This document shows positions 15,319-62,649 of a DNA stretch of 64,000 bases, piece by piece. The stretch covers positions 285 through 64,284 of the forward strand of contig CAUQVM010000001.1 of NCBI GenBank assembly GCA_963521575.1, written 5' to 3'. The DNA comes from an uncultured Rothia sp. (lineage in GTDB: Bacteria; Actinomycetota; Actinomycetes; Actinomycetales; Micrococcaceae). Every line of letters starts with the position of its first letter. Position 1 is the stretch's first letter. A program made the translations under genes and the position numbers. The notes beneath the pieces are model-generated. The model was not told the origin of the DNA, did no database searches, and was given only the letters and a program-made list of their open reading frames with translations.

Positions 15319-15692
15319 CACATCTTTTCGGGGATAGCATCCCCGCTAGTTTTGGTTCTTTCGGCGTTCGGTGAGGGCGCGGGAGGAATCATACTGCATC
15401 GTTTCGCACATTCTTCAGATGACCCGGAGCGGTGCAGATTGTTGCGTTCTGGCTCTACCGGATTGGCGGTCTTCGGCAGTATGATGCAGTAGAGCTTAGG
15501 GACGTATTCATTCGATTTCTGATAATTACACTCACTGATTCCGACGGTAGACACGCTGTTAGCACGGATTGATCGGCAACCGCCCGGCGGATTGAGGTGC
15601 CACGAGGTACCTCAGTCGCCGCAGGATGACTGCGGTGCCGGCACTCTGCGTGCGTCGGCCTACTGATGGTTGAGGTCTCTGAGAGGAGACAA

Positions 15693-19427: not shown

Positions 19428-19491
19428 ACATTTCCGATCGCATTAATGTTGATGCGTTTAACCCTACATTTTGGCATTCATTGGAGATAGT

Positions 19492-22857: not shown

Positions 22858-23320
22858 CCTGTTTAATCCACTTTTATATTTCCGCAATTGCTCCTCGTTT
22901 TCCTTATCTTTAGAGAACGAAAGAGTCATCAAAGCAAGGCTTTGCCCTGGTATTACACGGCGCATCGTATGATCAGTCCGGGTTCTTTTAACGGACTAAT
23001 ATCTATAATTCTCCGTGTCTCACATTTGCTCTAGAAGCAATCCAAACCCCCGGGTTGAGCAAACTTGAGCGACCGCAAAAATCCCTTCAGAGTCAAGAAA
23101 ATACATTAAAAAGCATAGTCAGAGGGGTATTACCGTTATAATTGACTCTGGACACATCCCCCCTGTCCCGCTTTATCTCCTCGTAAAATATCTATATAGT
23201 GGTGTAGGAGAAAGGAATTAACCACCTTTTCTCAGCGAGACTTCCGGACTATCTCGCCGCCATCCCGAAAGGGAGTATTACACTCTCCTTCACTCCTCTC
23301 ACCGACTCAAAGGAATGTGC

Positions 23321-24109
23321 ATGTCCACCCCTGAGGCACCTCACAACCCCACCTCTGCGCCCGCATCGGGATTCGCCGCTACCTTCTCTCAGACGCTACG
23401 CTCACTGGAAGCTGCGCAGAAGCCCGGCATTGGTGTACCAGCCTACACTCGCTGGGTTAACCGACGCGTCGCCCGATACTTCGCTGCGGTGGCCGTAGCC
23501 CTGGGTATCACCCCCAACGGTGTTACTGCAATCTCAGCAATGTGTTCGGCCGCAGGCTTGGTTGTTCTGATTACTTGCCCGCCCACCATTGGCGTGGGCA
23601 TCTGCGTGGCTCTCCTCTTCGCCCTCGGCTACGGTCTGGACTCGGCCGACGGCCAGGTAGCCCGCGTAACCGGTGCATCCTCCCCGGCCGGCGAATGGCT
23701 CGATCACGTGGTCGACTCCATTCGAGTACCCTCCGTACACATGGCGACCCTACTCTCCTTCCTCCTCTACCCGGCTCACTACTCCTTCGACGGTTCCAAC
23801 ACCTTCAATAGCTGGCTCATTGCCCTACCCATGATTTTCACCGCACTGACCGCAGGCCACTTCATGAGCCAGATTCTGGCCGAACAGCTACGCAATAACC
23901 GCAAGACTGCGGCACCCTCTACCGGCGGCCCCCTGCGCTCTTTCATTAACCTGCACATGGATGCCGGCACCCTCTGCTGGATTTACATCTTCGTGGGCTT
24001 TGGCCCGTTCTTTGTTATCGTGTACGCGCTATTGCTACTCGCTAACGCCGCTACGGTACTGCTATCCATGCGCCGCAAGTACGTCACCCTCGCAACCCCC
24101 GCCGAGTAA
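23321..24109 (+). CDS. CDP-alcohol phosphatidyltransferase-family protein
   Basis: ITPN and DSADGQVAR ... GEWLDHVVD signature. Confidence 0.9.
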   Translation: MSTPEAPHNPTSAPASGFAATFSQTLRSLEAAQKPGIGVPAYTRWVNRRVARYFAAVAVALGITPNGVTAISAMCSAAGLVVLITCPPTIGVGICVALLFALGYGLDSADGQVARVTGASSPAGEWLDHVVDSIRVPSVHMATLLSFLLYPAHYSFDGSNTFNSWLIALPMIFTALTAGHFMSQILAEQLRNNRKTAAPSTGGPLRSFINLHMDAGTLCWIYIFVGFGPFFVIVYALLLLANAATVLLSMRRKYVTLATPAE

Positions 24110-24121
24110 GGAGAAAGACCA

Positions 24122-25072
24122 ATGATGCACTTTACTTCTCGTACCCCCGCTGTCTCCGCCGTCATCGCAACCAACGGTAAGCGTCCCGAGCTACTACGCG
24201 TGGCCGTACGCTCCATTCTGGATCAGAGCTATCGCGGCTTCGTGGAGGTTGTTGTCGTCTTTGACCGCGTAGAACCCGACCCCCTCGAGGATATCGAAAT
24301 CGGTAAAAACCGCGCGCTGAAGATTATTTCTAATACCCGATCCGGTGGCCTGGCCGGCAGCCGTAATAGCGGTATCCTCGCCTCAACCGGTACCATGATT
24401 GGCTTCTGCGATGACGACGACTACTGGATGCCCTCCAAGCTCACCCAGCAGGTCGCACTCTGGCGCGAAAACCCCAAGGCTGCAGCCATCTCCTCGGGTA
24501 TTACCGTGCGCTCGGGCGGGCAAGACATTGTGCGCCTGGCCCCCGAACGTGCCACCTTCGCAGATTTCCTGCGTTCGCGCATTACCGAGATTCACCCCTC
24601 CGCAATGCTCTATTCCCGCGAAGACCTCATCGGTACCGACGGCGAGCCCGCCCGCATTGGCCTGGTAGATGAAGATCTACCCGCAGCCTATGGCGAGGAC
24701 TACGACCTACTCCTGCGTGCCACCCGCCACGGTGATGTGCTGAGCGTTCCCGAGCCGCTCGTTCTAGTACTCTGGGATCGTCCTTCCTTCTTCTCCGGCA
24801 AGTGGCAGTCCATGGTGGACGGTCTCACCTATATTCTGCGTAAGTTCCCCGAGTTTGAGCAGGATCCCAAGGGTCTGGCCCGCATTGCCGGCCAGGTGGC
24901 CTACGCCTACGCCTCCCTGGGCGAGGGCAAGCAGGCCCGCGCCTACGCGCGTTCCGCCCTGCGCCGCGACCCCAAACAGCTACGCGCCTGGGCCGCTTAC
25001 GTGGTCTCCACCGGCGTCATTAAGCCCTCTACCCTCCTTGACCTCGTTCAGAAAACCGGCCGAGGTCTCTAA
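24122..25072 (+). CDS. Glycosyltransferase family 2
   Basis: GLAGSRNSG, FCDDDD and GEDYDL motifs. Confidence 0.9.
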   Translation: MMHFTSRTPAVSAVIATNGKRPELLRVAVRSILDQSYRGFVEVVVVFDRVEPDPLEDIEIGKNRALKIISNTRSGGLAGSRNSGILASTGTMIGFCDDDDYWMPSKLTQQVALWRENPKAAAISSGITVRSGGQDIVRLAPERATFADFLRSRITEIHPSAMLYSREDLIGTDGEPARIGLVDEDLPAAYGEDYDLLLRATRHGDVLSVPEPLVLVLWDRPSFFSGKWQSMVDGLTYILRKFPEFEQDPKGLARIAGQVAYAYASLGEGKQARAYARSALRRDPKQLRAWAAYVVSTGVIKPSTLLDLVQKTGRGL

Positions 25073-25090
25073 ACCGGATAACACACAGAC

Positions 25091-26446
25091 ATGGTAACCT
25101 CATCTGTTCTTTCCCCCTCGGGCTCGCGAGCCCTCCCGCTGCGGGATTCCACCTCCACGGATTCCGAACCCCCCAGCGCTATTTTGCGTGCCCGCACCCG
25201 AATAGCGTCGTTACCCGTATCGCAGAAGAAGCTCCCGGCCTGGCCGTTGCTGGGTCTGCTCTACGGCTTTCCGGCGCTATGGGCGCTGGGTATCCTACAG
25301 ATTGCACCCGTCATGCTGGCCGCAATCATGCTTTTTTACCTCATCATCCGAGGTAATGTGCGCATGCCCAGCTCGCTGTGGGCCTGGTTCGCATTTACCG
25401 TATGGGTCATTGTTGCAGTCCTAGGACTGACCCGCTCCACCGATATTATTGGCTGGGGTCTGCGCTTTGTGAACATTCTCAGTGCTGGTATTTATGCGCT
25501 GTACTACTACAATGCGCGTTCCTCGATTAGCCTCAACCGGCTACTGGGCGGTCTGGCGACGCTGTGGGCCACTGTCATCCTGCTCGGTTATGGCGGTGTG
25601 TTCTTCCCCGATTTCCGTCTGCGCACCCCCATGAGCTTCATTATGCCCCCCGGGTTTATGCAGAACCCGCTTGTGCGTGACTACATGTTCCCGCCCCTAG
25701 CTGAGGTGCAGCATCCCTGGGGTGCTCCGGAGCCGTATATTCGTCCCTCCGCCCCTTTCCCCTACGCCAATAGTTGGGGTCTGGCATACACCCTACTCAC
25801 CCCGGTGATGCTCGCCTGCCTGCTACGCCTGCGTTCGTGGTGGGTACGTGGCCTCCTACTGATAGGTATGGCCCTTTCCGTGGTGCCTGCGGTTGCTACC
25901 AGTAACCGCGGTATGTTCATCGGCCTGGGTATTAGCGCCGCCTACGTGCTGCTACGTCAGTTCCTGGCCGCTAATTGGCGCGCCGTCGGTATCGGCATAG
26001 CCGCAATTACGGCCGTTGTTGTGGCTCTCTTTGCTTCCGGTACGGTAGATAATATTCTGGGTCGTCAGGATTACTCCGATTCGACCGGCGGCCGCGCGGC
26101 ACTGTACCAGGCCACCTGGAAGGCGACCCTGGAATCCCCGATTATTGGTTACGGCACCCCCCGTATGGAGCTGAGCGTTGGTGTGTCTATGGGTACCCAG
26201 GGTTACCTGTGGACCCTCATGTTCTGCTTCGGCCTAGTGGGCTTGGCCCTGTTCCTGATCTACATACTGTGTACGGTGTACACCGGAACTCGGGTTAAGA
26301 CCGCCGCCGGATACTGGTTGCACAGTGTGCCGGTAGCCTGCTGCGTTGTGTTTATCTTCTACAGTTTTGACATTGCGCAGCTGAGCATTCTCATGCTCTC
26401 ATCCATGGCTTGTATTCGGTCGATTCAAGATGGTGAGGGGTTATGA
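25091..26446 (+). CDS. Wzy polymerase / O-antigen-ligase-like membrane protein
   Basis: About 11 TM segments; RPSAPFPYAN, SNRG and SPIIGYG motifs; locus context. Confidence 0.75.
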   Translation: MVTSSVLSPSGSRALPLRDSTSTDSEPPSAILRARTRIASLPVSQKKLPAWPLLGLLYGFPALWALGILQIAPVMLAAIMLFYLIIRGNVRMPSSLWAWFAFTVWVIVAVLGLTRSTDIIGWGLRFVNILSAGIYALYYYNARSSISLNRLLGGLATLWATVILLGYGGVFFPDFRLRTPMSFIMPPGFMQNPLVRDYMFPPLAEVQHPWGAPEPYIRPSAPFPYANSWGLAYTLLTPVMLACLLRLRSWWVRGLLLIGMALSVVPAVATSNRGMFIGLGISAAYVLLRQFLAANWRAVGIGIAAITAVVVALFASGTVDNILGRQDYSDSTGGRAALYQATWKATLESPIIGYGTPRMELSVGVSMGTQGYLWTLMFCFGLVGLALFLIYILCTVYTGTRVKTAAGYWLHSVPVACCVVFIFYSFDIAQLSILMLSSMACIRSIQDGEGL

Positions 26447-28407
26447 GCCAAGATTCGCTGAATACCCCCGACCCAGCCGAGGGCGTGCGCCCCGGAGGCG
26501 GCCACCCCAGCCGCCGCGCACGCCTACGTGCTGAAGCTGAGGCCGCGGAAGCGGAGGCCGCGCGGACAACGCCCCCCGCCGAGTCTGTCGAGCTAATCGA
26601 TGAGATTGCGCCCACGGTCGACGATATCCGTTCGGGACGTTTTCCTGCGACCATGGCTCTATCGGTGGTCCCGCCCGCGGAAGGTTTCGCCGCTGCATTG
26701 CGACGGAAATCCTCCACCACGGCCACCAAGCCCTCTACCAGCACGACGAACACAAGTGTGGGCGCGCATCTAGACACTACCTCGGTGCCGAAGCTTACTG
26801 CCCAGCAGATTTCTGCGCACGCTCGATCTAAGAAATCCGCTACTTCCGCGAAATCTAGCGATAGCGGTACCGCCCAGGCTACCAATACGAGCTCTGCTAA
26901 GGATTCCAGCAAGGGCAAGCAACCCAGCTTGGCGAAGAGCGGTTCCCTGGCTTCCCTGTGCGTGATGTACGGTGCAGGTATCGCCTTTGTGACCACGATG
27001 GTGGTATCCAACGGTATCGGCGCGGAGGGCTCGGGTGAATTCTTCCGCCTCATGGCGCTCTTTGCTATTGCCGTTTCGCTGGTGACCTTCGGGGCGGATA
27101 CCGGCCTGGTGCGCACCATGTCCGCGCAACGGGCGTTGGGCCGCTATGGTTTGCTCCCCCAGCTGATTCGCTACGGCCTTGTGCCGTCGCTGGTGACTTC
27201 AGTCATTCTGGTGATTGCCGTGGATATCTACTCGGCTGCAGTGCCAATGGCTCCCGAGTATCAGTCAGCAATGCGCGTTAGCTCAGCGTTCGTGCTGGTT
27301 GCCGCGCTCATGACGGTATTTTTCGGCTCTCTGCGCGGCTTGCACCGCGTGGTGACGTTCACAGTCCTGCAGAACGTGCTACTGCCAACGTTGCGCTTTG
27401 CCGCGGTAGCACTGGTGGTGCTTTTTGCCGGGCAGCTCATGCAGCTGGTGTACGCGTGGACTGTGCCTGTGGCAGTGACCGCGATTGTGGCACTCTGGTT
27501 GTTGGAGCGAGCATTCCCCGCTGAAGAGCACGTGGAGGTTCTCCCCACCGAGGATTCTCCAGGAGAGACCTTCCGTTCCTTCTGGAGCTTCAGCTCGGCT
27601 CGTGGCGTGGCTACCGTGGTTGAGACCATTCTGGAATGGATCGATGTACTGGTGGTGACCTCATTCTTGGGTGCGGCTGCCGGCGGTGTTTACGGTGCGG
27701 TGAATCGTTGTGTCCGAGTGGGTACGATGATTGAGCACACCGGTCGTGTGGTGACCGGCCCGTCAATTAGTGCGGCGCTGGCAACCCGGCAACTGAATCG
27801 AGCGAGGGATATTTTCCTTTCGACGACCCGTGTCTTGACCGCGCTATCTTGGCCCTTCTACCTATCTTTGGCGTTCTTCGGTCCGGTACTCTTGGGATTC
27901 TTCGGCAAGGGTTTTGAATCTGGTGCCGGAATCCTTTGGGTTATTTGCCCCGCAGCGATGCTTTCAATGAGTGCCGGCGGTGTGCAGTCGGTCCTACTTA
28001 TGAGCGGTAAGAGCCGCTGGCAGCTGCTGAACAAGCTTTCTTCGCTGGTGGTTGCAGTCGTATTGAACTTCACTCTAGTTCCGCTATGGGGCCTGTACGG
28101 TGCCGTGACGGCTTGGGCTTCTTCTCTGCTCATTGACACGGCCTTGGCCAGCTACCAGGTACTCCGCTTGGTGGGTATTCGCGCTTCCTGGCGTGAAATG
28201 GCTCCTTCGCTGGCTCTGGGTACCGCAGTTCCGACGCTGTGCGCTCTGCTGTCTCTGGCTTTGTTGGGTCAGAGCGTGCTGGGTGTCATCGTGTACGTGC
28301 TGATTCTGGTACCCCTGTACGGAGTGGTGCTGTTCCGTTTCCGTAAGGCCTTGGGCATTGAGCGTTTCCTCTCCGCCCGTAAGGCGAAGGCTTCCGCCTC
28401 TTCTTAG
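26443..28407 (+). CDS. Wzx-type flippase with long low-complexity N-terminal extension
   Basis: FGADTGLVR, DVLVV ... GVYG and LNFTLVPLWGLYGAVTA motifs; 4-bp overlap with the upstream gene. Confidence 0.82.
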   Translation: MSQDSLNTPDPAEGVRPGGGHPSRRARLRAEAEAAEAEAARTTPPAESVELIDEIAPTVDDIRSGRFPATMALSVVPPAEGFAAALRRKSSTTATKPSTSTTNTSVGAHLDTTSVPKLTAQQISAHARSKKSATSAKSSDSGTAQATNTSSAKDSSKGKQPSLAKSGSLASLCVMYGAGIAFVTTMVVSNGIGAEGSGEFFRLMALFAIAVSLVTFGADTGLVRTMSAQRALGRYGLLPQLIRYGLVPSLVTSVILVIAVDIYSAAVPMAPEYQSAMRVSSAFVLVAALMTVFFGSLRGLHRVVTFTVLQNVLLPTLRFAAVALVVLFAGQLMQLVYAWTVPVAVTAIVALWLLERAFPAEEHVEVLPTEDSPGETFRSFWSFSSARGVATVVETILEWIDVLVVTSFLGAAAGGVYGAVNRCVRVGTMIEHTGRVVTGPSISAALATRQLNRARDIFLSTTRVLTALSWPFYLSLAFFGPVLLGFFGKGFESGAGILWVICPAAMLSMSAGGVQSVLLMSGKSRWQLLNKLSSLVVAVVLNFTLVPLWGLYGAVTAWASSLLIDTALASYQVLRLVGIRASWREMAPSLALGTAVPTLCALLSLALLGQSVLGVIVYVLILVPLYGVVLFRFRKALGIERFLSARKAKASASS

Positions 28408-28455
28408 TTTTTCTCCGATATTTAGTGTCCGTTTCTTTTCTTCTAGGATGTCCTC

Positions 28456-29688
28456 ATGGATAAAACCTCTCACAGTTCTTCGGTAACCCTGGGTAGCCAG
28501 GTACACCGCATTTTTCGACACCATCTACTGATTCTGGTGTCGGTGGCTATCTTCGCCCTGGTTGGTGCCGTGTACGGTTATATGACTATGGGTAACTACA
28601 GTGCGAAGGCCTCGGTAGTGGTCTACCCTATGATTGTTGATCCGGCCGGTACCGGTAGCGCGAACTCGACAAAGGTTGATATCGCGACCGAGTCGCGCGT
28701 TGCGTCCTCTCATGAGGTGGCGGAGACCGCCGCAAAGGCGCTCATCGCCAATGGTGACACCCTTTCCGAGGCTCAGCTGATTAGCCGCCTCACGGGTGCG
28801 GTAAAGGTGACCGGTACTTCCCAGACCTCGGTTCTGGACATTGAGGTAACCCGTCCCAACCCCGATGAAGCTGCCCGATACGCTAACGCAATAGCGAGCG
28901 CATACCTGCAGGCTCGCGCTAATGCGCTCAAGAGCAACGTGAATGCTGCAACCGAGAAGATTGACGAGCAGATTACCGCTGTTGAGGGTGACACGAACCG
29001 TGCGGCCTTCCTTGCCGGTCTGCATGATCGCCGTGCCCAGATTCAGCTGACCTCGCTCATCGGTGGTCGTGTTATTAGCCAGGCGCAGATTCCTTCCTCC
29101 CCGAAGTCTCTGGGTCCGATTAAGCTGGGTCTAGTGGGCGCTGTTGTTGGCCTGCTGGTTGGTGCTGTAGTGGCCTATGCTCGCGACCGTTTGATGGGCA
29201 ACGTCGGCTACGCTGACCGTCTGCAGGATGCTGGTATCCCGGTGCACGAACTGGGTTCCACTTCTGAGGCAAATGATGCCTTCATGCTGCTGCGCACCGT
29301 TGGTGCTCCCGATGGCGATCTGAAGAGCGCCGGCGCTTCGGGCGTGGTAGTTCTGCCGGGTACTGATGAGGGTGTGAAGCATCTGCACCAGATGCTGCAG
29401 CGTGTGCTGCCGAGTGAGTACGCTCAGTTTACCGACTACGCGTCGGTGCGTGATGAGCTGACCCGCCACACTCCTGAGTCGCTGGTGGCTAAGAGTGATG
29501 TTCCCCTGGTCATTAGCCTAAGTAGCTCCACTCCCCTGTCGACTCAGCTGCGCTTTGTTCAGGCTTCCGGCGTGGCACTGGTTCCGGTCAACGCAACGAC
29601 TTCGCTGTCTTCGGTTCGTGAACTCTTCGAACAGCTCCAGGAGCTGGACGGTGTCACTTCCCTGGCAGTCTTTATCGACCACGAGTAG
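28456..29688 (+). CDS. Wzz/CpsC-like polysaccharide co-polymerase with degenerate C-terminal domain
   Basis: Two TM helices; Y-x-A-x-A start of the extracellular loop; AARYANAIA; Pro motif PSSPK; G-rich TM2. Confidence 0.75.
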   Translation: MDKTSHSSSVTLGSQVHRIFRHHLLILVSVAIFALVGAVYGYMTMGNYSAKASVVVYPMIVDPAGTGSANSTKVDIATESRVASSHEVAETAAKALIANGDTLSEAQLISRLTGAVKVTGTSQTSVLDIEVTRPNPDEAARYANAIASAYLQARANALKSNVNAATEKIDEQITAVEGDTNRAAFLAGLHDRRAQIQLTSLIGGRVISQAQIPSSPKSLGPIKLGLVGAVVGLLVGAVVAYARDRLMGNVGYADRLQDAGIPVHELGSTSEANDAFMLLRTVGAPDGDLKSAGASGVVVLPGTDEGVKHLHQMLQRVLPSEYAQFTDYASVRDELTRHTPESLVAKSDVPLVISLSSSTPLSTQLRFVQASGVALVPVNATTSLSSVRELFEQLQELDGVTSLAVFIDHE

Positions 29689-29852
29689 AGGCTAATACGG
29701 TTCGGGTGTGGCCCTATCCGTTCCGGTATTTTCGTCTTTTGGTGTTCCCGGGGTTTGGGGATTGAGCCGCCGCGCGGTATGTCGCGCGGCGCCTCCCCGT
29801 CCTGTGGTACTAAGTTTTATATTTTCTTTGATTGGGGCTTTAGGAGATACCG

Positions 29853-30332
29853 ATGTCTGACTCAACCTCTTCCCAGACGCGGCAGAAGCTTCTGCTGGTC
29901 TCCAGTAGCGGTGGCCATTTGAAGCATCTGACGGCGACCGCTGCAGCCTGGAAGGACTACGACCGCGTGTGGGTCAGCTTTAAGCAACCCGATGTGGAGT
30001 CCTCACTGGCAGATGAGAAGACCTACTGGGCGTACTACCCTACGACGCGCAATGTTAAGAACGCTATTCGTAATCTTTTCCTGGCGTTTCAGATTTTTCC
30101 AAAGGAACGCCCCGATGCGGTGGTCTCGGCCGGTGCCGGCGTTGCGGTTCCGTTCTTTGTGGCTGCCAAGCTCTTCGGCGCGAAAACGCTGTACATCGAG
30201 TGTTTTGACCGTCCAACTCTGCCGACAATGACAGGCAAAATGCTGTACACTTTTGCCGATCGCATCATTGTCCAGAGCGAGGAACAGCATGAGAATTTCC
30301 CGGATTCTCGTGTGATTCATCCTATTTTCTAG
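29853..30332 (+). CDS. Alg14/PssD/CpsF-like glycosyltransferase acceptor subunit
   Basis: SSSGGHL, ERPDAVVSAGAGVAVP and YIE ... PTMTGK motifs. Confidence 0.9.
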   Translation: MSDSTSSQTRQKLLLVSSSGGHLKHLTATAAAWKDYDRVWVSFKQPDVESSLADEKTYWAYYPTTRNVKNAIRNLFLAFQIFPKERPDAVVSAGAGVAVPFFVAAKLFGAKTLYIECFDRPTLPTMTGKMLYTFADRIIVQSEEQHENFPDSRVIHPIF

Positions 30333-30344
30333 AAGTGATGTAAT

Positions 30345-30396
30345 TATCCCGAGGATAATGTCCCCTCATGTGTTGGGGGGCGTTATCCTCGGGGTA
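30345..30396. terminator. Hairpin between the Alg14- and Alg13-like genes
   Basis: cccgaggataatgtcccct ... ggggggcgttatcctcggg. Confidence 0.55.
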
Positions 30397-30613
30397 TAGT
30401 ATTTATTAACATACAGATACGCATTTGTCGTGCGCTCCACTGTGGACTCACTATCCATGCGAACTAACCACTCGCCAGAGAAGCGTATTGCGGGGACTAA
30501 CCACCATTTTCTCCGGCACGACGACGCCTCATCTTTTCATGATGCCCTCCGGATTATTATTGCATCGAAATGAATGTGGTTACTACCGATAAATACATAG
30601 AGAGGAATAGGCA

Positions 30614-31324
30614 ATGTCTATTCAAAACTTCCCCCAGGCCAGTATCGATACTTCCAAGTTTGATCTGCCCGTATTTACTCCTGCCGTCGCGCCCGTTCGT
30701 ATTCCGACTAAGACCTACGATCTGGTGGTGTCGCTCGGCACTGACGTTCATACTTTTGATCGTCTTCTGCGTTGGGTTGAGGCCTACCTTGAGGCTCACC
30801 CGCAGGTCACCTGCCTTGTGCAGCACGGTCATACCGCCCCCATTAAGCACGCTGAGAACCTGAAGCTTCTGCCCGCGGAGGAGCTACTGGACTACTACGC
30901 AAACACGCGTGTAGTGCTGGTTCAGGGCGGCCCCGGCTCTATTCAGGATGCGCGCCGCACCGGTGCCCTGCCCCTGGCCGTCCCCCGTCGTGCAGAGTTC
31001 AATGAGGTTGTCGATAACCACCAGGTTCCCTTCACCGCCCTGATGGAGAAGCGTGGCCACGCCATTGTTGTAGAAAACCGTGAAGACCTCTTTGATAAAC
31101 TCGATTTGGCCCTCTCCAACCCCTCCCTGTTCCGTACTGCTGAGCCGTATGTCTCCACCCCGGAGATTTCTGCCGCTCAGTTGAGCGAGGAACTTCACGA
31201 CCTGCTGGCGGGTAAGACCCGCCGCAAGGACTCCTTCTGGGGCCGCCTGAAGCAGGCCGCCCGCGCGCACCGTGCGGGCAAGGCGGAAATGGACCGTATT
31301 AACGCAATGACTCCCAGCGCCTAA
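30614..31324 (+). CDS. Alg13/PssE/CpsG-like GT28 C-terminal catalytic subunit
   Basis: VSLGTDVHTFDRL, QGGPGSI and VPRR ... EVVDNHQ motifs. Confidence 0.9.
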   Translation: MSIQNFPQASIDTSKFDLPVFTPAVAPVRIPTKTYDLVVSLGTDVHTFDRLLRWVEAYLEAHPQVTCLVQHGHTAPIKHAENLKLLPAEELLDYYANTRVVLVQGGPGSIQDARRTGALPLAVPRRAEFNEVVDNHQVPFTALMEKRGHAIVVENREDLFDKLDLALSNPSLFRTAEPYVSTPEISAAQLSEELHDLLAGKTRRKDSFWGRLKQAARAHRAGKAEMDRINAMTPSA

Positions 31325-31567
31325 TACGGCCTAGGCGCGTTATACCGCGCCCTCACAGCTTGTTCGAGGCATCAAGCGTCCGAACATTAACCGGTATGCG
31401 GGTCCGGGTGAGGGTTTTAGCCCGTGAATTCTTAGGATTATTCTCTCGATTTCACGGCATATTCCCAGCCGGATTCGTATCGTACGGCTAGGTTGCGAAC
31501 CCCCGTGCACCGTATCCTTAGTAAGGATGATGCGCGGGGTTTATCGCGTACTACGAAAGGAAAAAAT

Positions 31568-32065
31568 ATGGCAGTTCAGGAATCCACCGTTATTAACGCA
31601 AACGTAGAGCAGGTCATCGAGGCCTTCTCCAGCGAAGACTTCGCTCGCTTTGTTTGCTCCGAGGTTGGTGTTGAGTTCGGTAGCTTCTCGGTCTCCGGCG
31701 ATACCGCCGCAGCCTTCACCGCTACCACCGAGCGCACCATTCCGGCCGAGCGCGTTCCGGATATCGCTCGCAAGTTCGTCGGTAACGGCGTCTCCATGAC
31801 TCAGGTGGATAACGTAAGCGCACCGGCAGCCGATGGTTCCCGCACCATTAACACCGAGGTGAAGGTCAACGGCGTTCCCGTATCCGCTCAGGCAACCCAG
31901 CAGCTGACCCCTGAGGGCGATCAGACCCGTCTGGACGTCAACGGTGAGGTTAGCTGCTCGATTCCGCTGGTGGGCAAGAAGATTGCCGCTACCGCTGAGC
32001 CTCAGGTTGGCCGCGTGCTGAAGGTTCTGGGCACCTCCGCTGAGAAGTGGCTGGCACAGCGCTAA
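31568..32065 (+). CDS. DUF2505 family (START/SRPBCC-like) protein
   Basis: GAAAGG RBS; size ~165 aa; VSCSIPLVGKKI motif. Confidence 0.75.
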   Translation: MAVQESTVINANVEQVIEAFSSEDFARFVCSEVGVEFGSFSVSGDTAAAFTATTERTIPAERVPDIARKFVGNGVSMTQVDNVSAPAADGSRTINTEVKVNGVPVSAQATQQLTPEGDQTRLDVNGEVSCSIPLVGKKIAATAEPQVGRVLKVLGTSAEKWLAQR

Positions 32066-32123
32066 TCTCTCCTGTGCTCTCACCCGGGTCGCGGTGCTGA
32101 GTTACCTCACCCGTAGAGTACCG

Positions 32124-32161
32124 AAAAATCCCCGTCATCTGCAGAGGATGGCGGGGATTTT
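32124..32161. terminator. Bidirectional terminator
   Basis: aaaaatccccgtcatc ... gatggcggggatttt between convergent genes. Confidence 0.8.
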
Positions 32162-32216
32162 CCGTCTCTAGAGCACCTCAGCCGGGGCACCCTGGACGCC
32201 GTATTGACGGCGTACG

Positions 32217-32717
32217 CTATTTAGAGGCGACAATCGCCTCGGAGTATTCACGATCGCCCAGCAGGCCAGCGAAGCGGCGCATCTCGACACGCAGGTCATG
32301 CTCGGCTTCCAGCAGGTCAACGACCTTACGTAGCTTGGTGCTGGAGGTATGCTCGGTGTAGGGGAAGTAATGCACCTTCACACCCACCTCGACGAAACGT
32401 GCTTCAAGGGCGTTGCCTTTATCAGTACCCTGCCAGTCGTCACCCTTGAAGAAGACGTTGAACGGCTTCTGCTTCCAGGTCTCGAGCTTATCGGGGGTGG
32501 TTTCAATGTGTACTTCATCCACGTAGTCAATGTGGCTAACGATGGCAGCACGTTCTTCGATGGGGATGACGGGGCGGCGGCCCTTGGTCACTTCGAGGAC
32601 GTCGTCGTGCACGACGCCTGCAATAAGGTAGTCACAGTTTTCCTTGGCCTTGCGGAGAATCTCCAGGTGGCCGTAGTGGAACAGATCGTAAGCGCCTGCG
32701 GCGTAGCCAATAATCAT
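32217..32717 (-). CDS. TagD-like (glycerol-3-phosphate) cytidylyltransferase
   Basis: GAYDLFHYGH (HxGH), KGDDW and HTSSTKL motifs; start at MIIGY. Confidence 0.88.
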   Translation of the reverse strand: MIIGYAAGAYDLFHYGHLEILRKAKENCDYLIAGVVHDDVLEVTKGRRPVIPIEERAAIVSHIDYVDEVHIETTPDKLETWKQKPFNVFFKGDDWQGTDKGNALEARFVEVGVKVHYFPYTEHTSSTKLRKVVDLLEAEHDLRVEMRRFAGLLGDREYSEAIVASK

Positions 32718-33045
32718 GGGGAAGGGTCCTCGTGGTTGGTAGCGGCGATGGTTAAAAGGGCACGCATGCGTGCGGGCTAGTGGAGGAACATGTCTATTGT
32801 CGTGGGCCGGGTTATTGCGGGTAGAACCCGAGGCGGATGCGGAGCACATTGTTCTGCGCTCATGCTCCGTCTCATATTTCTACTCCACATTTCTGCTCTG
32901 CATTCCTGCACTATATTTCTGCAGTCCGATTTCTGCCCTTCGAACGAATGGTCCGAAAAAGAGTTCCTCGCGGGTGCTGATTAGGCGCCCCTAGCCCTTT
33001 TATTTTAGCAGTCACTCTTTTTCTCGGGACGGGTAATTCTAGAAA

Positions 33046-40073: not shown

Positions 40074-41567
40074 ATGACCATTTTGGAATTTTTCCGCACC
40101 ACGAGAGCTAACCTCTGGTTGCTGATTATTGGTGTCATTATTGGCGCCGCGGTGGGTTTCGGCTATGCCTCCATGCAGCCGAAGGTGTATGCCGCATCAT
40201 CCTCAGGCTACGTGACCGTGGGTGAGTCCGGAACGGTGGATGTGCTCTCCGGCTCCTCCGCTGCCAAGGAACGCGCTCGTTCTTACGCCGCTATTGTCTC
40301 CTCGGAGGCCGTGGCACAGAAGATTAAGCAGAACGCTGTATCCTCCGAGAACAGCCGCAGTGCCGAAGTGGCGAAGCTAAGCACCGGCCAGATTCGCGGT
40401 AGCCTCACCGCGGTTGCCGGTGAGAATGCCGCGCTGATTACCGTCAGTGCCAAGGCCTCCGACCCGAAGGTCGCCCAGTACCTTGCCAACGGTGCCTTGC
40501 AGGCCACCGCTGACTACATTAAGGAAATTGAGCAGAACCCGGGCAATGCTCAAGCTCTGGTCAATGGCGAGAACACCGAGGCCTCCCCCACCGGCGGCAA
40601 CGTCGTTCGTGTGATTCCGCTGAACAACGCTAGCGTCAACCCGCCCATGGTGGCACCGAACTACCAGCAGAACACCCTTATCGGCGCCGGTGCCGGCCTA
40701 ATTCTGGTCTACGCAGCCATCTTCCTGCGCCGTGCGCTTGACCAGCGCATCCGCACCCGTGATGACGCCACCAAGGCAACCGGTGCAAATATTCTGGGCG
40801 TCCTGCCCGTCAGTGACGATCTGAGCGAAGAGAACATCGTGAAGGGTGACACTGACGACCATATCGCCCAGGAATCCATCCGTCAGCTACGCACTAACCT
40901 ACGCTTCGTAAACGTTGATACTCCCCCGCGTTCGTTCATCGTCACCTCCGCGGTGCCCGGTGAAGGTAAGTCAACCGTTTCGCTTTCGCTGGCTCGTTCC
41001 CTGGCCGATGCGGGTTCACCCGTCATCCTGATTGACGCTGACCTCCGCCGCCCGACCGTGGCAAAGAAGCTGAAGCTTGACGCCAAGGTTGGTCTGACCC
41101 AGGTCCTGGCTGGTCAGGTGGAAATCGCAAACGCCGTGCACCAGCTGGGCGATTCGAACCTCTTCGTCCTGACCGCAGGCCGTATCCCCCCGAACCCCTC
41201 CGAACTTCTGGGCTCGGACAAGATGCGCCAGCTCATCCAGGAGCTCTCCGAAGAGTTCACCGTGGTCGTCGACGTTCCGCCGCTGCTACCCGTGACCGAT
41301 GCTTCACTGCTCTCCCACTCGGTGGACGGCGTTATCCTGGTCGGTTCGATCGGTCGTAGCCACCGCGAGCAGATGACCGAGGCCTCCAATATTCTGAAGA
41401 AGGTTAATGCGAACCTCTTCGGCCTGGTCCTGAACCGTGCACCTCGTAAGGGTCTGGGTAACTCCTACTACGGCTTCGGTTATGCAAGCTCCTACGTGGG
41501 ATACGCAACCTACTACGGTTATGGCAAGGAAGGCAATAAGCGGAAGTCGAAGTCAGCTAAGAAGTAG
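40074..41567 (+). CDS. Polysaccharide co-polymerase / BY-kinase (Wzc-like tyrosine autokinase)
   Basis: Wzz N-domain; Walker A PGEGKST; IDADLRRP; VDVPP; C-terminal Tyr cluster. Confidence 0.93.
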   Translation: MTILEFFRTTRANLWLLIIGVIIGAAVGFGYASMQPKVYAASSSGYVTVGESGTVDVLSGSSAAKERARSYAAIVSSEAVAQKIKQNAVSSENSRSAEVAKLSTGQIRGSLTAVAGENAALITVSAKASDPKVAQYLANGALQATADYIKEIEQNPGNAQALVNGENTEASPTGGNVVRVIPLNNASVNPPMVAPNYQQNTLIGAGAGLILVYAAIFLRRALDQRIRTRDDATKATGANILGVLPVSDDLSEENIVKGDTDDHIAQESIRQLRTNLRFVNVDTPPRSFIVTSAVPGEGKSTVSLSLARSLADAGSPVILIDADLRRPTVAKKLKLDAKVGLTQVLAGQVEIANAVHQLGDSNLFVLTAGRIPPNPSELLGSDKMRQLIQELSEEFTVVVDVPPLLPVTDASLLSHSVDGVILVGSIGRSHREQMTEASNILKKVNANLFGLVLNRAPRKGLGNSYYGFGYASSYVGYATYYGYGKEGNKRKSKSAKK

Positions 41568-41613
41568 CATCGCGCTACTCCTCCCGGGAAAAGTCTCCCC
41601 GGGGGGCAACCAA

Positions 41614-41653
41614 ATAGGGTGGGATGGGCAGTTTAGATGCCCCTCCCACCCTA
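41614..41653. terminator. Hairpin between wzc and the nucleotidyltransferase gene
   Basis: atagggtgggatgggca ... tgcccctcccaccctat. Confidence 0.5.
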
Positions 41654-41689
41654 TACTTATGTTGTACATCTGTGCACCGAAAGGCTATT

Positions 41690-42547
41690 GTGACCACTCA
41701 CTCAACCAATACCTCGGAGCTGCAAACCACTCCTCTAGCAGCCCGCATTCGGCTTGCGCACGCCTACTTCCAACGCATAGCTGATCTGCACTCCATCGAT
41801 ATTCTGCACATCAAAGGCTACGCGTTCTCCCAGGAAATCTACCGTAAAGGCAGGTACAGCTCCGATGCTGACCTGCTCGTCCGCCCCTCGCAGGTTGACC
41901 GCTTTGTGAAGATTCTTCTGGCCGACGGTTGGCGGATCCAAGCACACTTTGAAACCGGCTCTGTTTTTGAGCACGCCATGACTCTCTACCATGCGTCCTG
42001 GGGCTTGACCGATATTCACCGTTTCTTTCCCGGCCTCGGCCGCCACGGCGAGTACGAGAAGGCCTTTAACCGCATCTGGGCGGCCCGAAAGACCCGACTT
42101 ATCGCCCACCGCCCCTGCACCGTACCCTCGGACTTAGACGCGCGCCTCATCGTGGTTCTGCACCGTGCACGCGCTGCATCTCGCTATAGCGCCGATATTA
42201 ACTACCTGGTCAACCGTATGTCCTATGCCGACTGGCAGCGTCTCAAGGCACGCGCAGATGAGCTCGACTCCGTACTGGCCTATAGTGCGGCCATGGGCGG
42301 GCTCGACCAGCATCGGGGCGATCGCGACTATCTGCTATGGCTCTCCGTCTCGCAAAATGTTCCCCACTACGTGCAGTGGCTGGGTCGTCTACGCTCGGCC
42401 GCCACTCTCTGCGATAAGCTACGCGTCCTCAAAACCATCTTCTTCGTCAACAAGGACCACCTGGCCATGGAACTCGGACGCACCCCCACCCGCGCCGAAG
42501 TACTCGCCAAGTTCTTTGCGCGTTTTGGAATTGAGGTGAAGAAGTGA
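41690..42547 (+). CDS. Nucleotidyltransferase-family protein (NTP_transf_5-like)
   Basis: HIKGYAF ... RYSSDADLLV ... DIHR motif pattern; GTG start inferred. Confidence 0.75.
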   Translation: MTTHSTNTSELQTTPLAARIRLAHAYFQRIADLHSIDILHIKGYAFSQEIYRKGRYSSDADLLVRPSQVDRFVKILLADGWRIQAHFETGSVFEHAMTLYHASWGLTDIHRFFPGLGRHGEYEKAFNRIWAARKTRLIAHRPCTVPSDLDARLIVVLHRARAASRYSADINYLVNRMSYADWQRLKARADELDSVLAYSAAMGGLDQHRGDRDYLLWLSVSQNVPHYVQWLGRLRSAATLCDKLRVLKTIFFVNKDHLAMELGRTPTRAEVLAKFFARFGIEVKK

Positions 42548-42852
42548 ACACACCCAATACCGCAACTCAGCCCGTGTACGGTATTCCTGAAGACATCGCG
42601 TATGTCCACTCAGAAGAATTTGCCAAGTACTCCCCCACCGCCAGCTACATTGCGAACCTGGCCACCGGCGAGCATTCAATTCTGCAGGGGTCAGCATCCA
42701 TTATCTGGGGAATCTTCGAAGACCCCATGAGCCTCGAGGAGGCCATTGCGGTGGTTAGCGACATCTACGAGCAACCGGTGGAGGTTATTGCGCCACAAAT
42801 TCGCGAATTTATCCCCGATCTGCTGGCTAAGGGGCTGCTGGAAACTCTCTAG
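42544..42852 (+). CDS. PqqD/RRE-family small protein
   Basis: 102 aa; LATGEHSILQGSASIIW ... IYE ... FIPDLLAKGLL matches the PqqD pattern; GTGA overlap with the upstream gene. Confidence 0.75.
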   Translation: MNTPNTATQPVYGIPEDIAYVHSEEFAKYSPTASYIANLATGEHSILQGSASIIWGIFEDPMSLEEAIAVVSDIYEQPVEVIAPQIREFIPDLLAKGLLETL

Positions 42853-49897: not shown

Positions 49898-52141
49898 CTA
49901 CAGCCACTTTTCGAGGCGGTCCAGTGCCGTGAAGAAGCCCTCGCCATTGTTAATGTGGCCCTGCCAAATCTCAGGGATGAAGGAAGCCTTCGGAGCCAGT
50001 TCACGCAACTGCTTACCCAGCGCGGCCCAGTCCACGTCACCTTCGCCAACCTGTACACCCTCACCATCGACACCGGTGCCATCCACCAGGTGCAGGTGAA
50101 TCGACAGCGGTGCCAGTTGCTCAACAGCCTCCGACAGCGGAATGTTCAGGAAGTTGCAGGCGAGCATAGTGTGCGAGATATCCAGGCACAGCGCAGTGTC
50201 AAAGGCACGCGAGAATTCCGCGGTGTCCTTCGGGTCCAGGAATAGGTTGTGGTACTGCTGACCACCCATCAGCCAGGGATACGGAGGCAGAGTCTGGGCG
50301 GCCAGGCGCACGCCGGAGGCATCCAGGTGCTTCAGTGCCTCACCGATACGCTCGTACTTCTCAGCACGTGCGGACGCGGGGATATGCTTGTCCTTGGTGA
50401 AGCCACCCATGGTCACAACCATGACCGGATCCTCATCCACGGTGAAGTAGCGGGTCAGATCACGAGTAATGTCAATGGTGCGTTGCACCTCGGCGATGGA
50501 GCGCTCCCAAACCTCGGGGTCCTTGGAAGCCAAATCCACCAGGAAGTCACCGGCAAACAGGTCGGGCAAGTGTGTGGTGAAACCCATGTCTAGCTTGGAG
50601 TCGAAGACATCATCAATGTTGATTTCCAGGTCCTTGTAGGAGAAGTGGAACTCCAGGAAATCGGGCTTGGCCTCTTCAATCAGCGGCTTGTAGTCGTGGT
50701 AGCGAACCGGTAGACCCCAGGGGCGGTCAAACTTAAAGTCGCGGCGGGTGACCAGGTCATCCTTCAGGTCACCCTCGAAGAAGAATGAGCCTTCTTCAAC
50801 ATCGCGCTGTATGGTGCGGCCCACCAGCTGGTGCAGGTGGTTCGGCTGCAGGCCGCGCCCGGGGGACTTCACAGCCACGTCAGCCTCAGTCACGACCTCG
50901 CCCTTAGCAATGTGGCGGGTTGCCACGAGGGACTTTGCCAGGTTCACGCGGTTCATGAGCTCACCGGTGGACACCTCGCGGGGCGCAGCTGAGCCAATGG
51001 CGGACTCGACCTCGCGAATCTGCTGAACCATGGCCTTGAATTCCTCGGGTAGCAGCGAGACGGTGTGGTCATTACCCTCGAGAGTCTTATCGGTGGTGAA
51101 GTGCTTCTCGATAATCTTTGCACCGCGAGCCACAGCGGCGATCGGCACGTGGTAGCCGCGTTCATGACCCGAGTAGCCCACCAGGCACTGGCCAATCTCT
51201 GCCAGGCGATCCATGTAGGCCAGGTTCACGTCCTTAAAGGGTGCGGGGTAAGCCGACTGGCACTGCAGCAGGGAGTAGGATGCGCCGGCATTGCGTAGCA
51301 GAGCCACGGATTCACGGATTTCCTCCTCACGGCTCATACCGGTGGAAACCAGCATGGGCAGGCCGCGGGATGCAACATCGCGCAGTAGCTCGTGGTTGGT
51401 CAGGTCAGCGGAAGCAATCTTCATACCCTGAATACCGTAGTCAACCAGCGCCTGGACCGAGGGTGCGTCCCAGGGGGTGCACATAATGTCCATGTCGTGC
51501 TGCTTAACGTGATCGAAGACCTCGTACATCTGGTCCACGGTCAGGGAGAAGCGAGACAGCAGATCCAGGGTGTACTGCACGCCCAGGTCCTCACCAGCGG
51601 TAGCGGCGCCACGCTGGCGGTAGAGGGCATCCATATCGCGTAACTGGAACTTCACGGCATCGGCGCCGGACTCAACAGCCAGGTCCACAAGCTCCTTCGC
51701 AAAGTCCACACTACCCTGATGGTTGTTACCGATCTCGGCAATGATAAAGGCATGTGAATCCTCGCTAATGGTGTGCTTGCCAATGCGCAGAACGTCCTGT
51801 TCATCCATAGCCAGCGCCACGAGGTGGCCGCGCTCATCGGTCAGCGGCACGTGGTTAATGCCCTTGGCAAAGTAGCCGCGCAAAGTCTCGGGGTCAGCAT
51901 CGGCCGGCGCGGTCTGCGGAGTGGTGTTGGCGGCATCCAGCGCGCTGGTCTCCAGGGAGGCAGTCGGGTTAGCGATCAGCCAGCGGCGGAAGTCGCCGTC
52001 TGAGAGGGATCCGCGCAAAATACCGGACTCGTTGACCAGGAAGATAATGCGCTGACCGTTCGCGGAAATTTTCTGTAGCGCGGTAAGAATCGGGTCTTCG
52101 GCAAAGACCACATAGGGTGCAATATTGCGTTCGATAATCAC
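49898..52141 (-). CDS. neuB: Four-domain nonulosonic acid synthase: CBS pair, NeuB, SAF/AFP-like and AP-endonuclease-2/xylose-isomerase-like TIM barrel
   Basis: LSDGDFRR (CBS); IAEIGNNHQG, KFQ, KIAS, GYSGHE, IEKHFT (NeuB); KSPGRGL (SAF); LDISH, HLHLVD, VGEGDVDW, PEIW (TIM). Confidence 0.88.
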   Translation of the reverse strand: MIIERNIAPYVVFAEDPILTALQKISANGQRIIFLVNESGILRGSLSDGDFRRWLIANPTASLETSALDAANTTPQTAPADADPETLRGYFAKGINHVPLTDERGHLVALAMDEQDVLRIGKHTISEDSHAFIIAEIGNNHQGSVDFAKELVDLAVESGADAVKFQLRDMDALYRQRGAATAGEDLGVQYTLDLLSRFSLTVDQMYEVFDHVKQHDMDIMCTPWDAPSVQALVDYGIQGMKIASADLTNHELLRDVASRGLPMLVSTGMSREEEIRESVALLRNAGASYSLLQCQSAYPAPFKDVNLAYMDRLAEIGQCLVGYSGHERGYHVPIAAVARGAKIIEKHFTTDKTLEGNDHTVSLLPEEFKAMVQQIREVESAIGSAAPREVSTGELMNRVNLAKSLVATRHIAKGEVVTEADVAVKSPGRGLQPNHLHQLVGRTIQRDVEEGSFFFEGDLKDDLVTRRDFKFDRPWGLPVRYHDYKPLIEEAKPDFLEFHFSYKDLEINIDDVFDSKLDMGFTTHLPDLFAGDFLVDLASKDPEVWERSIAEVQRTIDITRDLTRYFTVDEDPVMVVTMGGFTKDKHIPASARAEKYERIGEALKHLDASGVRLAAQTLPPYPWLMGGQQYHNLFLDPKDTAEFSRAFDTALCLDISHTMLACNFLNIPLSEAVEQLAPLSIHLHLVDGTGVDGEGVQVGEGDVDWAALGKQLRELAPKASFIPEIWQGHINNGEGFFTALDRLEKWL

Positions 52142-52231
52142 GGGTTATGACCTTTTCGTTTGAGTGTTTAAGTCGAAAGCCTGAGTGCCGGTCAAGGCGG
52201 GCGGTAGCGAGAGCGCTACCGAAGGTGAAGG

Positions 52232-52960
52232 TTAGTTGCCTTCCTCCAGAATCTGAGTGAGCTGGTGTTCAGCCACGGAGAAGTCAATCGGCGCATCAAT
52301 ATCAACGCTCTCAACTTCATCGAGCATGAACAAGTCGATGGTACCGCCGGGGTATCCAGCCAAGCGGTTGTGGTGATCCATGTACACATGGGTCTTCGTA
52401 ATGTACATGGAACCGTTCTCACGGTAGCGGAAGGTCTCCTTCGTCAGTTCCTGACGACGCGGTCGGGCCATCACCTCGAAGGCTGCGGTAGGCTCGCCAT
52501 TGGCGTGCCAAGTCCAGATAAACGGACCAATCGGAATGACGCCAACCATTGAATCCTTGCCATTCTCGGCAAATTGGTGAATTGCGCGGGCTAGGGTTCC
52601 GGGCAGTCGCACCGGGCTGGTGGCCTGCAGGAGCATGACGGCCTCGGGTGCCCAGCCGTTTTCAGTGTAGAACTCAATGGCGTGCTCAATCACCGGCTCG
52701 GTGGCGGTGGTGTCCTCGGCCAGGTAAGCCGGACGCATGAAGGGCACCTCGGCACCGTATTCGCGAGCGATATCTGCCAGTTCAGCATCATCGGTGGAGA
52801 CGACGACGCGCACCTCGTGCTCGCCAGCGACCTCTTCCTTGGCCGCTAGGGCCTGCTCAATAGTCCAGGCCACGAGCGGTTTACGCGCGATGGGTCGCAG
52901 GTTCTTACGCGGAATGCCCTTCGAGCCGCCGCGCACGGGAATAACGCAGAGAATACGCAT
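52232..52960 (-). CDS. neuA: Acylneuraminate cytidylyltransferase (CMP-NulO synthetase)
   Basis: IPVRGGSKGIPRKN, LQATSP, RRQ, ENGSMY and DID motifs. Confidence 0.92.
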   Translation of the reverse strand: MRILCVIPVRGGSKGIPRKNLRPIARKPLVAWTIEQALAAKEEVAGEHEVRVVVSTDDAELADIAREYGAEVPFMRPAYLAEDTTATEPVIEHAIEFYTENGWAPEAVMLLQATSPVRLPGTLARAIHQFAENGKDSMVGVIPIGPFIWTWHANGEPTAAFEVMARPRRQELTKETFRYRENGSMYITKTHVYMDHHNRLAGYPGGTIDLFMLDEVESVDIDAPIDFSVAEHQLTQILEEGN

Positions 52961-56395: not shown

Positions 56396-57358
56396 ATGGC
56401 TTCTGAGACCCCAGCCGTCACCGAATCGGAAAGGGTAGCCGAATATACCGTTCAGCATTCCGCTTTTAAACGCGCTATTAAGGCAACCTACGACTCTATC
56501 CGCCATAAGTACCTGGCAGAATATATTAACCTTCTGCGTCGGGGCGAGAAAATTATTCTTCTATCCTCTCCGATTTCCCGAGGTGGTAACTGGCTGTACC
56601 TATGGGCACGGGCCGCCACCCTGCGCCATCGGGGTACCGACAAGGCTTCACTACTCTACAGCCCCGGCATGGAGGCCTGGATCGAGGAGTTCCCGAAGCT
56701 TGCCTCTCTTACCGCACCGGCCTCGGAATACCGTTTCTTAACCCGCCGCAGCGGCTATTTCCCCGCGGACGTAAAAACGGACATTACCGAAGAAGATTTG
56801 CACTATTTTATTCGAGAGTATCTGCTCACATCGGATACGTTTTCTCACCGCCTCCAGAAAGTAAAGAATGTCCTGGATGAGAATTCACTCGTGATTAATA
56901 TTCGTCGCGGCGACTATTATTCAGTACCCCAGATTAATAAAGTTTTTGGTATTGACACGGTGGCCTACGTCGAGGAAGCGGTAAAGAAGCTCCAGGAAAC
57001 TGTCACGCCCTCAAAGATTATCTTTGTGTCAGACGATCTACAGTGGTGTGAGGAAAACCTCTCACACCTTGATACACTCGCCCCCTGTATTTTTAAAAAG
57101 CAGGGTGAAGGCATGTTTGATGACCTGGCTGTTGTCGCCAGTGCCCCCTACCTCATCGTGACGAATACGACCTTCGGTTATTGGGGGGCCTACATCGGTG
57201 AGCTAGTGAACCAGAAGCTGGTTCTCTCCCCCGATATTCACCAGGTAATCTCTACCGAGGCGCGTCTTTACCAGGAGCGCCCACAGATGCACCGCGCCCG
57301 TTGGGTCGCTGTTCACCATCCCGAAGGCAAGAACTGGATTACGGGTGAGGCGCAATGA
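56396..57358 (+). CDS. GT11-family (alpha-1,2-fucosyltransferase-like) glycosyltransferase
   Basis: GGNWL, NIRRGDY, FVSDD and NTTFGYWGA motifs; AAGGGG RBS before ATG 56396. Confidence 0.8.
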   Translation: MASETPAVTESERVAEYTVQHSAFKRAIKATYDSIRHKYLAEYINLLRRGEKIILLSSPISRGGNWLYLWARAATLRHRGTDKASLLYSPGMEAWIEEFPKLASLTAPASEYRFLTRRSGYFPADVKTDITEEDLHYFIREYLLTSDTFSHRLQKVKNVLDENSLVINIRRGDYYSVPQINKVFGIDTVAYVEEAVKKLQETVTPSKIIFVSDDLQWCEENLSHLDTLAPCIFKKQGEGMFDDLAVVASAPYLIVTNTTFGYWGAYIGELVNQKLVLSPDIHQVISTEARLYQERPQMHRARWVAVHHPEGKNWITGEAQ

Positions 57359-62328: not shown

Positions 62329-62649
62329 GATGCCTTTCTCGACCCGCTACAAAAAGCGTAGACGGGCCCATAGATTTGAGGAGTGATGAGCAGATGCTAG
62401 GCATAATTCTAACACGCAGGCTTTCATGAATATCGGAGATCTTTCTGTACTTTAGGTCATCTTTAGCGCCGGAATTTTTCCCCTTTCGATGCATCCCCCA
62501 ACCTACCTGAGGGGCGTTCGCCACACCTTGGGGTACCTAACCTTAGTCGAGGCAAGCAACTCGGTATGATAGATACTATTCATTCAACTTCACCCGACAC
62601 TTCCGGTTTTCGTGTTCACCGTTGGGTACGTCAAGAGAAAAGGCTTTTG

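Follow-up and report, generated by a model that had tools for sequence, protein, structure and literature searches.

The nucleotidyltransferase (NTase) and the stand-alone RRE encoded side by side in this window, by which we mean the whole stretch of 64,000 nucleotides of Rothia DNA analyzed here, are probably two parts, one the enzyme and the other the adaptor, of a dispersed system that modifies Tat-secreted proteins. The reading that accommodates the sequences best, and which we consider likely, is that the RRE would bind the export signal, a kinase would phosphorylate a serine, and the NTase would cap the phosphate before Tat export. What is new here is the dispersed, near-core form of such a set in Rothia, the co-occurrence of its parts at the genome level, their co-loss and the fixed register of the serine; an orphan RRE and an NTase without a characterized role gain named candidate substrates and one residue to examine.

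The NTase-RRE pair and its glycan locus

The NTase gene (positions 41690 to 42547, forward strand, 285 aa) has a GTG start with a GAAAGG site ahead of it, and its product scores 59 bits on PF14907, for which the cut-off is 31.2. The RRE of the PqqD family (42544 to 42852, forward strand, 102 aa) is joined to it by a GTGA overlap that spans the NTase stop, and scores 30 bits on PF05402 against a cut-off of 23.4. An earlier note, made from the letters of the window, had described an NTP_transf_5-like enzyme with KG and SDADLLV motifs and a PqqD-like protein, coupled behind a Wzc kinase, and had proposed these two profile searches; both matches lie above their cut-offs, both motifs are present, and the gene upstream encodes a Wzz-Wzc polysaccharide co-polymerase/tyrosine autokinase with a C-terminal Tyr cluster (40074 to 41567, forward strand; TIGR01007, 164 bits), so that the description was borne out. 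The spacer between this gene and the NTase measures 122 bases and contains two strong predicted hairpins (41580 to 41654, forward strand), the whole spacer folding at -56 kcal/mol, a value without shuffle control.

Membership of the NTase in PF14907 is seen in the score, in a DxD metal-binding motif with a third Asp (D59, D61 and D108, invariant in 36 rows) and in the NTase fold. The conserved motif set comprises S57-x-D59-x-D61, D108 and H110, and K42-G43, D59-x-D61, D108 and H110 are kept in all 36 aligned NTase rows. The structural model (pLDDT 92.5) matches the nucleotidyltransferases MenT1, LnuA and ANT(2''). The NTase is under purifying selection, since its codons differ from those of one relative by 118 synonymous and 36 non-synonymous changes. 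For the RRE, a profile comparison with solved structures placed lasso B1 proteins (TbiB1, E 8e-13; TfuB1, E 2e-7) ahead of true PqqD.

The named homologues of the pair are Rothia proteins, and the genome of origin, an assembly 76.5% complete, holds one PqqD gene and one PF14907 gene. The NTase is present in 34 of the 36 other genomes of the genus, wzc lies upstream of it in 30/30 genus loci read (the window's own included), and the RRE lies downstream in 29 of these by tblastn and in the remaining one by profile. Because of this prevalence and of the conserved wzc-NTase-RRE order, the pair is a near-core feature of the genus and not an accident of one strain. A natural NTase-linker-RRE fusion of 419 aa was also seen (P0022, from one contig); a second apparent fusion, P0012, was rejected, as it looks like an internal deletion.

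Among 301 genomes from the order, 99 gave a PF14907 match, and loci extending ~10 kb to each side of the NTase were taken for 20/36 strong and 40/78 weaker matches, after which genes were called and clustered. Two main types emerged on separate branches of a quick tree, namely type A (19 loci) and type B (32 loci), which is the window's type, and in this quick tree the type B NTases are set apart from the lasso-locus NTases of the same order with an SH-aLRT of 100. In type A, a lasso cyclase was found in 11 loci and a B2 peptidase in 9; in type B, neither was found in any of the 32. Near the NTase, the type B loci carry an RRE (28), an HprK-like kinase (22), a low-molecular-weight phosphatase domain (21) and Wzc (19), and 30 of them have at least one glycan gene within ~10 kb; these positives, and the 16 loci with leader genes given below, are partly circular because the profiles were built from the same loci. 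A third PF14907 type (L057, L064-L069) is short (~200 aa) and comes without RRE, kinase or glycan context.

The genome of origin, at 76.5% completeness, yielded no PF13471 B2 peptidase and no lasso cyclase, B2 or lasso precursor with profiles from related loci, and its three radical SAM genes all lie on contigs other than the window's. With no cyclase or B2 in the 32 type B loci either, the pair does not belong to a lasso cluster. The neighborhood census proposed in the earlier note therefore upholds its idea of a lasso-less, RRE-guided module tied to glycan loci; the targets it had named, the Wzc tail or the polymer, fared worse, as discussed below.

The adjoining glycan locus includes a Wzy/O-antigen-ligase-like protein (PF04932; 46271 to 47692, reverse strand). 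The window also encodes a Wzb-like low-molecular-weight tyrosine phosphatase, the usual Wzc partner (62566 to 63876, forward strand). The Wzy-like gene is missing from both system-less genomes of the genus, and was not found in two system-bearing genomes either; it and the priming transferase were rejected as strict companions of the system, their distribution not tracking it strictly. A second glycan locus (23315-32849) holds a CDP-alcohol phosphotransferase, a flippase, a Wzz-like protein, an Alg14/GT28-like pair and a cytidylyltransferase. A CBS-NeuB-SAF-TIM-barrel fusion with a CMP-sugar synthetase (49898-52960) points to a predicted nonulosonic acid in the polymer, and a GT11 gene lies at 56396-57358. 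Two large secreted paralogues (15666-18167 and 19471-22689) have a weak resemblance to fibrinogen-C at the N-terminus and some similarity to beta-propellers, none of these matches reaching its Pfam cut-off.

A kinase and proteins with twin-arginine-type leaders on other contigs

The earlier note found no RiPP genes, which holds within the window and fails for the genome as a whole (G000), where other contigs encode an HprK-like kinase that bears an RRE, along with four proteins that carry the leader. The kinase (G000:C77:728-2041) was found with a profile from related loci (E 1e-62), TIGR04352 having failed to recover it in this genome, and it retains the His, Walker A and DE motifs. Its model has the PEPCK/HprK fold according to the fold search; the kinase profile, compared by sequence with solved structures, gave P-loop matches only. 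The C-terminus of the kinase is an RRE (hhalign 96.5%), which in some other genera forms a separate small gene. In two closed Rothia genomes the kinase and the NTase are 135-136 kb apart, and for this reason the pair looks like an orphan when one window is read by itself; the kinase was not found in two incomplete genomes of the genus.

In genus g15 (L038, L043, L052 and L060) the kinase carries an N-terminal extension that, by eye, resembles a low-molecular-weight phosphatase domain in degenerate form, and behind the kinase stand as many as six leader genes in tandem. A MauE-thioredoxin-like fusion (G000:C79:234-1340; L092) is encoded ~1-12 kb from the kinase in most genomes of the genus, and a gene of this kind lies near the NTase in 8/32 type B loci. 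The two system-less genomes of the genus, G014 and G018, have a short MauE-domain match only, the full-length gene being confined within the genus to genomes that bear the system. The fusion is a candidate for the enzyme that forms disulfides between the paired cysteines of leader proteins.

Profiles from related loci detected the four leader proteins on contigs C2, C12, C21 and C86 (for example, G000:C21:8610-9461). One of the genes (G000:C12:3990-5224; L096) changes frame after ~225 codons, by pseudogenization or assembly error. The leaders follow the consensus RR-x7-WxxP-x8-P-x2-A-x-S, with a hydrophobic stretch between WxxP and P-x-x-A, an invariant RR and a nearly invariant A29. Judged by these features, the leader is a twin-arginine-type signal with a predicted AxA site that contains a [Y/W]xxP motif, twin-arginine export being assigned from the motif alone. 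WxxP is missing from the other twin-arginine-like signals of the genome of origin. TatC was detected in 4/4 complete relatives and was not found in the genome of origin (76.5% complete). Co-folding of the RRE with one leader gave a score of 0.28, the mark being 0.32, a value taken neither for nor against binding.

The position 17 residues after the tryptophan (W+17) is a serine in 34/34 distinct leaders of the genus; counted from the cleavage site predicted at AxA for signal peptidase, it is residue +2. As these were best hits, every leader match in three near-complete genomes was rechecked; the 27 matches comprised 24 intact leaders, one with a stop, one truncated and one unrelated, and the serine is present in 24/24 of the intact ones. 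A pattern blind to W+17 recovered the serine in 41/44 hits in the loci and in 4/6 in the genome of origin.

The bodies of the leader proteins are variable, mostly of 150-500 aa, and often have a cysteine pair. A Pfam family could be assigned to only 1/23 mature leader proteins, the exception (L152:1588-3108) having a Peptidase_M26_C domain (E 3e-38), and the Atlas names are automatic only (glycine-rich protein and Tat-signal protein are examples). The last residues of many leader proteins from Rothia are DGIW, DGIY, DGIF or NGIW (L099, L102, L103, L113, L114, L122, L126 and L127), possibly a second sorting or assembly signal.

Co-occurrence, co-loss and the probable target

Across the 301 genomes, the type B NTase profile matched 50 at E 1e-8, of which 45 with a full-length protein (E 1e-39 or better) were counted and 5 weak ones dropped, and the kinase profile matched 65, of which 47 were counted at E 1e-60 or better and 18 dropped, both cut-offs being placed where the output showed a gap. 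A total of 50/301 genomes yielded leaders, a number that may include misses because only 25 candidates were scored per genome. All 45 genomes with a full-length type B NTase have both leaders and kinase, and 251 of the 256 without it have no leader. Against this pattern we count the five leader genomes (5/50) without a full-length NTase, one of which has fragments of NTase and kinase. The match extends to the NTase genomes outside the leader-training set (leaders in 32/32) and holds inside patchy genera, where all three parts occur together in 3/9, 3/11 and 1/5 genomes. As related genomes are not independent, the counts are given without p-value. Leader genes lie within ~10 kb of the NTase in 16/32 type B loci, all outside the genus; within the genus, leaders occur in the same 34/36 genomes that carry the NTase, with 3-11 leaders each.

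The two remaining genomes, G014 and G018, are 100% complete and lack the NTase, RRE, kinase, leaders, wzc and Wzy-like gene, retaining TatC and the priming transferase; they may represent a single loss event. Wzc was found in 44/45 NTase genomes (E 1e-35), with a Wzc-like gene in the locus of the 45th, and yet also in 127/256 genomes without the NTase, so that Wzc can do without the system, whereas the system itself seems to depend on a locus of Wzc type. Since the NTase is linked to wzc in Rothia and nearly all NTase genomes have wzc, co-loss alone cannot tell whether the target is a protein or a glycan.

The leader proteins are, in our judgment, likely substrates. The earlier note had good grounds to suspect the phospho-glycosylation of a protein. 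The distribution of the NTase is matched almost perfectly by that of a family of proteins with WxxP Tat leaders and of a kinase of the serine type. According to the preferred reading, the window RRE and the kinase-fused RRE would bind WxxP inside the twin-arginine signal of the 3-11 secreted proteins per genome, and the HprK-like kinase would phosphorylate Ser(W+17), by analogy with LppK and PsmK. By analogy with PsmN, the NTase might then cap the phosphate with a sugar, directly or via a nucleotidylated intermediate. The protein would be exported by Tat and, because the signal is cut after export, the modification would be left at the new N-terminus, through which the protein may become joined to the Wzy/Wzc polysaccharide. 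The NTase step is the weakest, because the role of PsmN (sugar transfer or substrate making) is ambiguous and deletion of lppN had no effect in a foreign host; for the sugar capping the balance is even. The attachment of the Wzy/Wzc polymer to the modified N-terminus is doubtful. In the literature we found no experiments on any member of the type B NTase subfamily, which is counted against this reading.

A different division of labor is improbable, in which the kinase and RRE phosphorylate the leaders and the NTase, in the manner of LicD/FKRP, transfers a phospho-substituent onto the polymer or its lipid-linked unit. It would account for the glycan genes in 30/32 type B loci, for the cytidylyltransferase and CDP-alcohol phosphotransferase in the window and for the lack of effect of LppN on its peptide, and FKRP does appear among the fold matches of the NTase; this match is weak, however (E 0.013), ranking below MenT1, LnuA and ANT(2''), the NTase is joined to the RRE by overlap or by fusion, and kinase and leaders accompany it in 45/45 genomes despite widely differing sets of glycan genes.

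The location of WxxP inside the signal peptide, the poor cleavage of unphosphorylated LPP precursor and the MauE-thioredoxin-like gene near the kinase in the genus, full-length only in system-bearing genomes, would also suit an RRE that acts as a signal-peptide chaperone, pacing the Tat export of disulfide-bearing proteins, with phosphorylation as a reversible checkpoint and nothing stable added. We find such a checkpoint quite improbable, as it leaves unexplained both the constant presence of a motif-intact NTase and the linkage to glycan loci, and the fixed serine remains on the mature protein.

The action of the pair on Wzc or the polymer, suggested by the earlier note, is unlikely, and the specific proposal of an RRE that guides the NTase to the tyrosine tail of Wzc, or to some other component of the polysaccharide machinery, is barely credible: the gene order in 30/30 genus loci, the near-universal Wzc of NTase genomes and the joint loss of wzc and the pair in G014 and G018 speak for it, but Wzc occurs in 127/256 NTase-less genomes and is absent within ~10 kb in 13/32 type B loci, and the leaders, far better predictors of the NTase, are left unexplained.

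Comparison with known systems

The earlier note had named a cognate RiPP cluster elsewhere in the genome as a case that would speak against its idea, and this case applies in part, as cognate partners are present, as kinase and leaders, without forming a classical RiPP cluster. Similar parts are found in the clusters for linear polyphosphorylated peptides (LPP) in Bacillota, with the genes LppA/K/B/S/D/N, described in 2026 (PMC13381572). As far as the available text of that report goes, those clusters also combine a discrete RRE, a kinase of HprK-like type and an NTP transferase without characterized role, have no cyclase and lie in a capsular polysaccharide neighborhood. Their discrete RREs bind a [Y/W]xxP leader motif, and LppK phosphorylates Ser3, 18 residues after the motif Tyr (PMC13381572), a conserved serine that in both systems stands just past a cut of the signal-peptidase type, predicted in Rothia, its distance from the aromatic residue being 18 in LPP and 17 in Rothia. 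Unphosphorylated LPP precursor was poorly cleaved, and deletion of lppN changed nothing in the heterologous system (PMC13381572).

The whole LPP part set of discrete RRE, kinase and NTP transferase is present in the Rothia genome, but not in one cluster. The LPP consensus, YxxPxVLxHQxIxFETxxS (PMC13381572), is not matched by the Rothia leaders, which are twin-arginine signals, and the Rothia substrates are mostly proteins of 150-500 aa, 3-11 per genome and scattered, in actinobacterial hosts. LPP clusters have a dedicated SipW-like peptidase and an MsbA-like exporter (PMC13381572). Among the recurring neighbor gene clusters of the NTase loci, read without a SipW profile, there was no SipW-like peptidase, and an ABC transporter was present in only 6 of 40 weaker-scoring loci. 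The terms twin-arginine, Tat and Rothia do not occur in the main text of the LPP report.

In pseudomycoidin (PsmK/PsmN) and paeninodin (PadeK), an HprK-type kinase acts on a serine and is followed by a DxD nucleotidyltransferase with an ANT(2'')-like fold (PMC6993621), a likeness shared by the window NTase, whose model also matches ANT(2'') and LnuA. PsmN is needed for the hexose on phosphoserine and requires its DxD motif, and its authors, in the part of the article available, could not tell sugar transfer from substrate making (PMC6993621). Unlike these sets, the Rothia system has no cyclase, B2 or lasso precursor, its NTase stands on a separate branch of the quick tree, and its serine lies close to the N-terminal end of a large protein rather than at the C-terminus of a peptide.

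The HPr-rel-A cassette (TIGR04352 HprK_rel_A and TIGR04353 PqqD_rel_X) likewise unites a kinase and a PqqD-family protein, has an adjacent NTase, and has no function assigned. By sequence, the Rothia set is not a member, because its kinase scores 26 bits on TIGR04352 against a cut-off of 200 and the window RRE gave no match to TIGR04353 when E values up to 1 were admitted.

A genomics paper on Rothia mentions 'RRE-containing' clusters and, in the portion available, assigns them no substrate (PMC9676035), and no description of a Tat-leader RRE/kinase/NTase system was found in the literature searched, whose scope excluded supplements and most subscription papers. If the preferred reading is true, an export signal has taken up RiPP leader recognition and brings it to bear on folded proteins, the leader could be used as a transferable tag in site-specific modification, and a common mouth bacterium would have a further route of surface-protein decoration. 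A still broader view, speculative and on balance unlikely, is that of a general protein-glycosylation pathway made from RiPP parts, with the Tat signal as address, a Ser-phosphate-sugar primer and the Wzy/Wzc polymer joined to it, the Rothia surface being a glycoprotein mesh. Rothia is a culturable commensal genus, common in the mouth, in which the system is near-core (34/36 genomes) and natural losses exist, and the role of the PF14907 enzymes of paeninodin and LPP clusters would become directly testable. The Rothia set resembles the LPP and paeninodin-type sets of kinase, NTase and RRE and is a member of neither, because it combines the absence of cyclase and B2 with another leader consensus, Tat-type export, and large, scattered substrates.
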